Source: Escherichia coli
Lineage (GTDB): Bacteria; Pseudomonadota; Gammaproteobacteria; Enterobacterales; Enterobacteriaceae
Reading direction: 5' to 3' (one strand)
Assembly: GCF_003334315.1 (NCBI RefSeq)
Contig: NZ_QOWR01000141.1
DNA length: 237 bases
Made by a program: the position numbers and the translations under genes. Of this stretch, positions 1 to 237 are shown one piece after another. Every line of letters begins with the position of its first letter. Position 1 is the stretch's first letter. Under the pieces are notes generated by a model that ran no database searches, was not told where the DNA came from, and worked only from the letters and a program-made list of their open reading frames with translations.

Positions 1-19
1 TGATAGAAACAGAAGCCAC
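1..19 (-). CDS. insA: IS1 InsA (transposition regulator and N-terminal part of the InsAB' frameshift transposase); first 6 codons only, CDS continues beyond the window
   Basis: GTG start at 19-17 on the minus strand, followed by GCT TCT GTT TCT ATC, i.e. (M)ASVSI, matching the InsA N-terminus MASVSISC. The start is 56 nt from the IS1 terminus, consistent with the known insA position in IS1. Only 19 nt lie in the window. Confidence 0.72.
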
Positions 20-26
20 TGGAGCA

Positions 27-45
27 CCTCAAAAACACCATCATA
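27..45 (-). promoter_or_regulatory. insA translation-initiation region: Shine-Dalgarno GAGG (30-27) and a candidate -10-like hexamer TATGAT (45-40) of the IRL-associated insA promoter
   Basis: GAGG lies 7 nt upstream of the GTG start, which is good spacing. TATGAT sits about 20 nt upstream of the start region. The insA promoter is known to overlap the IRL, but exact -35/-10 assignment here is my reading and not verified; no convincing -35 is seen at 17-bp spacing. Confidence 0.4.
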
Positions 46-51
46 CACTAA

Positions 52-74
52 ATCAGTAAGTTGGCATCATCACC
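52..74 (-). repeat. IS1 terminal inverted repeat (IRL, about 23 bp); InsA-binding end of the element
   Basis: The minus strand reads GGTGATGATGCCAACTTACTGAT, against the canonical IS1 IRL GGTGATGCTGCCAACTTACTGAT (22 of 23 matching). IS1 ends are established binding sites for InsA and carry an IHF site; I cannot place those precisely from sequence alone. Confidence 0.85.
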
Positions 75-237
75 GAATCTATATACTGAACCGGATTCAG
101 CGGATACTGATAAAAATTCCATCCCCCCTTCAGCCCAATCGGATCCTGAGTGATATACCTCCCCTGCAGCGGGTCATAATAGCGGTGGCGGTTGTAATAC
201 AGGCCGGACTCCTCATCATACTGCTGCCCCGGCAGGC
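53..237 (-). CDS. Rhs-family (YD-repeat) core protein, 3' end of the conserved core domain; ORF interrupted by IS1 at 74/75 and terminated inside it (probable truncated gene or pseudogene lacking its C-terminal toxin domain). 5' end lies beyond the window.
   Basis: Minus-strand frame starting at 235 translates without stops to [53 protein letters not shown], then S-VMMPTY and TGA at 55-53. The first 53 residues match the strongly conserved Rhs core C-terminal region ([10 protein letters not shown]...[11 protein letters not shown]...YQYPLNP) as I recall it from enterobacterial Rhs proteins. The other two minus-strand frames contain early stops. Codons 55-60 and the stop are IS1 sequence. Confidence 0.85.

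Follow-up and report, generated by a model that had tools for sequence, protein, structure and literature searches.

A short Escherichia coli contig very probably records a strain-specific IS1 insertion in the second DPxGL motif of an rhs gene

Introduction

Does an rhs gene that runs into a co-oriented IS1 copy change the activity of that copy? The question is raised by contig QOWR01000141.1 of an Escherichia coli draft assembly (GCA_003334315.1), which an exact-protein look-up showed to be 237 bp long and which is spanned in full by the stretch of DNA analyzed here (the window, 237 nt). Its partial product of 60 amino acids (aa) is deposited as RCQ20512.1. On the minus strand of the window, an rhs core contributes its terminal 163 nt (positions 237..75), and these are followed directly by the initial 74 nt of an IS1 element (positions 74..1). 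The original prediction drew attention to the arrangement of rhs and insA across this junction and proposed that transcription or translation leaving rhs could alter insA/insAB' expression and thereby the activity of IS1. We propose instead that an A8-variant IS1, specific to this strain, has very probably inserted into a gene of the rhsC/ybfO core type; it is oriented like rhs and interrupts the second DPxGL motif, where the Rhs core comes to its end. This explanation is built on the two short segments named above; any full-length IS1, full-length rhs, or downstream toxin/immunity pair would extend or lie beyond the contig.

Results

Aligning the window with an rhs copy of the same type that is uninterrupted at this point, from E. 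coli O25:NM 2014EL-1343-2 (L001; reference sequence ...CAGTATATAGATTCAATGGGACTGGCA...), and with the annotated IS1 elements of L001 and of E. coli ECONIH5 (L002; NZ_CP026202.1) fixed the junction at 75|74. By this alignment, positions 1..74 of the minus strand correspond to IS positions 1-74 of the IS1 left end, and rhs gives way to IS1 precisely where the left inverted repeat (IRL) has its base 1. The IRL covers approximately positions 74-52, starts with GGTGATGATGCCAACTTACTGAT... at the first base of the element, and agrees with the usual IRL at 22 of the 23 bases of the terminal inverted repeat GGTGATGCTGCCAACTTACTGAT. The single deviation (C8A) concerns IS1 position 8, aligned to position 67 of the window, where an A replaces the usual C. 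Of 9,314 E. coli records that contain IS1, 364 have the exact 74-nt left end with A8, at many loci and with IS1 transposase annotation; A8 is a real minor natural variant that is evidently still mobile. An A is also the base found at the same position of the right inverted repeat (IRR), and in the left end it gives incoming frame 2 a further TGA, at 69-67.

The insA gene starts with GTG at 19-17 (IS position 56) and continues as ASVSI to the end of the window (1..19, minus strand). This start agrees with the IS1 coding sequences annotated in RefSeq, which begin at 6490 for the IS1 starting at 6435 in L001 and at 6227 for the IS1 starting at 6172 in L002. A Shine-Dalgarno (SD) sequence, GAGG, can be read from the sequence at 27..30 of the minus strand, 7 nt 5′ of the GTG. 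Furthermore, a consensus scan returned a promoter-like site at 40..67 on the same strand (ATGCCA, a 16-nt spacer, and TATGAT; 9 of 12 matches) that overlaps the IRL. A weak IS1 promoter overlapping the IRL has been described (PMC12428005), and the site at 67..40 lies at its position. The IS1 part of the contig stops at IS position 74, short of the IRR, the A6C frameshift site, and the 8-9 bp target duplication that belong to a full 768-bp element. The neighboring examples in L001 and L002 show 768 bp and 9-bp duplications. Collectively, alignment and annotation bear out the anatomy as originally read, namely, the rhs part, the IRL, the insA start and its SD sequence, and the junction at 74/75.

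The rhs part (75..237, minus strand; 54 codons, counted from 235) scored 73.4 bits against the NCBIfam model TIGR03696 (Rhs_assc_core; cut-off of 32.5), covering profile positions 20-73 of 76, and matched NF041261 (RHS_core) at positions 1205-1259 of 1261. The match hence stops 2-3 positions short of the ends of both core models. The 163 nt are 100% identical to the rhs copies in L001 and L002, and the very same sequence ends a 3.7-kb rhsC open reading frame (ORF) in L002 as well as 1-kb orphan fragments in L001 and in E. coli JCC-EE 7 (L004), which are devoid of the N terminus and of a promoter of their own. Both a full-length transcribed gene and a promoter-less orphan fragment would be compatible with these 163 nt.

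The shell end of Rhs proteins carries two DPxGL-type motifs (defined as DPLGL) that are 17 residues apart, with the catalytic Asp located in the second one and the toxin domain cleaved off just after it (PMC8636562). In the translated window, the first motif of the C-terminal aspartyl-protease plug is present as DPIGL (131..145, minus strand), and exactly 17 residues separate it from the Asp of the second motif. Compared with the uninterrupted copies, in which the second motif reads DSMGL, only a remnant is left at 74..79 of the minus strand: the Asp codon at 79-77 and a Ser codon at 76-74, whose third base is supplied by IS1. As a member of the Rhs core family, the ORF is therefore disrupted, with the first motif intact, the second cut after DS, and no toxin encoded. 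IS1 lies within the second DPxGL autocleavage motif, leaving an ORF that would retain the shell end and lose the toxin. Provided that the insertion is simple and that the usual toxin tip follows downstream, the toxin domain after DSMGL would no longer be translated as part of Rhs; by analogy with L002, the toxin tip and its immunity gene would be located beyond this IS1. The Photorhabdus Rhs1-type polymorphic toxins share the two DPxGL-type motifs spaced by 17 residues at the shell end; however, in these proteins the toxin directly follows the second motif (PMC8636562), whereas here the motif is broken after D-S and six IS-encoded residues follow instead.

The second DPxGL motif is a recurrent breakpoint, through other IS elements or through tip replacement. 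Four further truncated Rhs proteins (P0126, P0127, P0132, and P0134) also break at or right after it (...NTDPLGVRSFS and ...DPLGLGKVRISGEILLG). Measured in steps of 40 nt (77-237), the GC content of the rhs part of the window falls steadily toward the junction, starting at 0.65 and reaching 0.35. This fall is the switch from the GC-rich core to the AT-rich DNA of the toxin tip, where IS1 landed. IS1 prefers AT-rich targets, and its landing at the start of the AT-rich tip DNA fits this preference.

The rhs ORF crosses the junction 75|74 and adds the six IS-encoded residues VMMPTY, reading 19 nt into IS1 before it terminates at TGA 53..55 (minus strand; IS positions 20-22). As originally stated, rhs and insA are co-oriented and in the same frame, with the TGA at 55-53, the GTG at 19-17, and the insA SD sequence (GAGG, 30-27) between them. 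The stop and the GTG are 36 nt apart, with 33 nt between them. On the other hand, they are not separated by one stop codon, since the codons from stop to start read TGA TTT AGT GTA TGA TGG TGT TTT TGA GGT GCT CCA GTG and contain three in-frame TGAs, the second at 41..43 and the third, which overlaps the SD sequence, at 29..31 of the minus strand. The two other incoming frames are closed as well, frame 0 by TAG 48..50, at which the rhs::IS1 junctions of L001 and of the database protein P0013 stop, and frame 2 by TGA 70..72, at which the ECONIH5 junction stops. All three frames are thus closed inside the first 27 nt of IS1 (frame 0, TAG 50-48; frame 1, TGA 55-53; frame 2, TGA 72-70). Because of this, any co-oriented insertion into an ORF places the host stop 28-50 nt upstream of insA.

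The probability that host gene and insA share a frame by chance is 1/3 given co-orientation and approximately 1/6 overall, and the natural rhs::IS1 junctions indeed occupy all three frames: frame 1 in the window, frame 2 in ECONIH5 (...YIDSMGR, stop), and frame 0 in L001 and P0013 (...GDAANLLI, stop). The shared frame is a coincidence without mechanistic content. A terminated ribosome keeps no memory of the frame that it has read, and here the ribosome has already terminated 33 nt upstream of a start codon with its own SD sequence, so that the frame relation is meaningless. Nor is a fusion between the host protein and InsA possible, as the IS1 left end carries stops in three frames, with three of them in the insA frame. 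The translational coupling that had been suggested fares no better: the 33-nt gap, the separate GAGG at normal spacing from the GTG, and the two further in-frame stops differ from the classical coupling geometry, in which the upstream stop overlaps the next start or is only a few nt away from it.

The transcriptional half of the original prediction rests on firmer ground, inasmuch as a general effect of read-through on IS1 is known (PMC12428005), whereas the single stop and the shared frame that were to single out this copy do not hold. In E. coli K-12, IS1E lies co-oriented inside yrhA. The promoter of IS1 itself is very weak, insAB' is transcribed more strongly with upstream DNA present, and chromosomal IS1A and IS1E transpose less once an rrnB terminator precedes them, the loss being approximately 30% in the frameshift-fixed copies (PMC12428005). 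As in the window, IS1E is oriented in tandem with its host gene, and host transcription entering insAB' modestly raises its transposition (PMC12428005); in contrast to the window, the host gene is a different one, the IRL of IS1E is canonical, and the experiments concern IS1E, while the window is known by its sequence. An older plasmid study is titled as reporting repression of IS1 cointegration by flanking read-through (Machida et al. 1983, Cell 34:135, as cited in PMC12428005). The sign of the effect is therefore disputed, stimulation (PMC12428005, 2025) standing against repression (Machida 1983). A scan for terminator-like sites found none in the 163 nt of rhs, as expected in the middle of an ORF, and a scan of the window found none in the IS1 left end. 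Read-through from rhs into IS1 is plausible.

Under the strongest competing explanation, transcription and translation coming from rhs would have a measurable influence on how active this particular IS1 is, either by read-through insA/insAB' mRNA, by promoter occlusion at the IRL, or by termination and reinitiation between TGA 55-53 and GTG 19-17. We consider this rather unlikely. The weakness of the native promoter, the loss of transposition upon insertion of an upstream terminator, and the terminator-free 163 nt of rhs all speak in its favor, and so does the predicted folding of the RNA, in which the SD sequence and the GTG are no more occluded in the read-through transcript than in the short native leader. 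In ViennaRNA calculations, the SD sequence was unpaired with a probability of 0.04 when the leader was native-like and of 0.35-0.5 in read-through constructs, these values being model dependent and relying on an assumed transcriptional start site (TSS) and on downstream IS1 sequence borrowed from L001. Nevertheless, the direction of the effect is contested, the identity of the frames adds nothing, and the 33-nt gap with a separate SD sequence is unlike classical coupling. The upstream rhs may moreover be a promoter-less orphan fragment like those of L001 and L004, and anti-oriented insertions at such sites are at least as common as co-oriented ones, with no sign of selection for co-orientation (see below). 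In addition, IS1 is strongly polar, and read-through transcripts are expected to be ended by Rho inside the element, which would shorten them.

Host transcription and translation entering the transposase gene is an issue that IS1 shares with IS10, IS50, and IS200. The leaders of IS10 and IS50 sequester the transposase start in read-through RNA and leave it open in the native transcript. No read-through-specific structure hiding the insA start was found by folding with the assumed TSS and the borrowed L001 sequence, and an IS10-like protective leader is unsupported, the folding trend being opposite, although this trend too depends on the assumed TSS and the partly borrowed sequence. What the IS1 left end does is to block incoming translation in all three frames; it is without a detected terminator, unlike the left end of IS200 (PMC4513863).

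We next consider where this insertion stands among other IS1 copies near the same rhs core end. Of 5,426 complete genomes of E. coli, 145 have the left end of IS1 in co-orientation no more than approximately 600 nt downstream of this core end; when the IS1 right end took its place in a synthetic query, anti-oriented IS1 was retrieved near the same core end in 198 of the 5,426. Both figures count genomes and not independent events, as they include many clonal relatives and pool several rhs loci. The distances vary widely in both orientations, which points to multiple events in each. A selected orientation bias was rejected in view of the 145 co-oriented versus 198 anti-oriented genomes. Taken at face value as genome counts, these numbers make rhs tips look like frequent landing sites of IS1.

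Two of the co-oriented cases were compared with the window directly. L001 and L002 carry independent simple insertions of a 768-bp IS1 flanked by 9-bp target duplications (CCAGGGATG in L001 and CAATGGGAC in L002). The insertion in ECONIH5 resembles that of the window in the type of rhs core, in orientation, and in striking the second DPxGL motif; it is a simple insertion with its 9-bp duplication in a 3.7-kb rhsC ORF. It differs from the window in being located 8 nt further downstream, in reading out in another frame (DSMGR, stop at IS positions 3-5), and in carrying an IS1 of a divergent type, with 35 differences in 768 nt. Downstream of IS1, L002 continues with the remaining 155-aa toxin tip and then ybfC. 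A Pfam scan of the L002 copy assigned no family to the 155-aa tip of this core type (6940-7409 in L002; 6174-6434 and 7203-7409 in L001); together with ybfC, the tip constitutes an uncharacterised Rhs toxin/immunity pair. Among the anti-oriented cases, one was confirmed by annotation, in L004. There (1865-3423), the IS1 beyond the orphan rhs adjoins a pseudogene of an ISAs1 (H-rpt) transposase and ybfC is missing, an arrangement pointing to a deletion, associated with IS1, that removed the tip/immunity module.

Such recurrence could also be read as adaptive, with IS1 at the boundary between core and toxin being selected, because it silences a costly Rhs toxin or because it seeds IS1-mediated exchange of tips. 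The genome counts in both orientations and at many distances, together with the other truncated Rhs proteins that break at the same motif, speak for this reading. The pattern is, however, also explained by the preference of IS1 for AT-rich DNA, given the drop in GC content from 0.65 to 0.35, and by tolerated insertions in toxin modules that are non-essential and often orphan, and the support consists of genome counts rather than independent events; we regard selection as improbable. Still more doubtful, to the point of being very improbable, is the broader proposal that rhs tips are preferred and selected landing sites at which co-oriented copies put the IS1 transposase under rhs/T6SS-inducing conditions.

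As for the insertion itself, megablast of the exact junction against the 5,426 complete E. coli genomes gave 0 matches, and an exact-pattern scan did not find it in GTDB species representatives or in JGI metagenomes. A second copy of the ...SVMMPTY end was likewise not found, the protein search with the 60-aa ORF returning only short Rhs fragments and supplying the differently framed IS1 junction of P0013, and an Rfam scan of the window produced just sub-threshold chance matches to archaeal snoRNA models. Because the exact junction is absent from the genomes, representatives, and metagenomes scanned, the insertion is private to the strain and presumably recent. A chimeric join of two repeats by short-read assembly might be suspected from the tiny size of the contig, from both of its ends falling in multi-copy DNA (rhs core and IS1), and from a junction that occurs nowhere else, yet this is hardly credible, since the break lies exactly at IRL base 1 as a real insertion requires, short repeat-bounded contigs are the normal short-read output for real IS insertions, the contig is recorded in 2 samples, and independent IS1 insertions are found 8 nt and approximately 270 nt away in finished genomes.

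Discussion

The account that we favor, an A8-variant IS1 inserted in the orientation of rhs into the second DPxGL motif, has several consequences. The product is an Rhs core with a six-residue foreign tail, VMMPTY, ending at the first stop that the IRL offers in its frame. Transcription of the upstream rhs, if it takes place, would carry RNA polymerase into IS1 and could modestly change the amount of insA/insAB' mRNA, as it does in other copies. Ribosomes would be released 33 nt before the insA GTG, and initiation at insA would then depend on its own SD sequence. A simple insertion would also have duplicated 8-9 bp of ...ATAGATTC next to the IRR.

With respect to the question posed at the outset, it is already known that co-oriented IS1 copies in general respond modestly to read-through. 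If the reading that places IS1 under rhs/T6SS control were true, bursts of IS1 activity and rearrangement of toxin tips would be linked to interbacterial conflict. On the explanation preferred here, the contig represents an ordinary IS1 insertion, private to one E. coli strain, by which an Rhs protein loses its toxin domain, and it is of little import beyond annotation. For genome scans, the lesson is that the combination of a same frame and a nearby stop at an IS boundary is not worth flagging. The case nevertheless illustrates two textbook points. The left end of IS1 stops translation in every frame, which makes the frame relation between a host ORF and insA uninformative, and the AT-rich tips of rhs genes collect IS1 insertions in both orientations.
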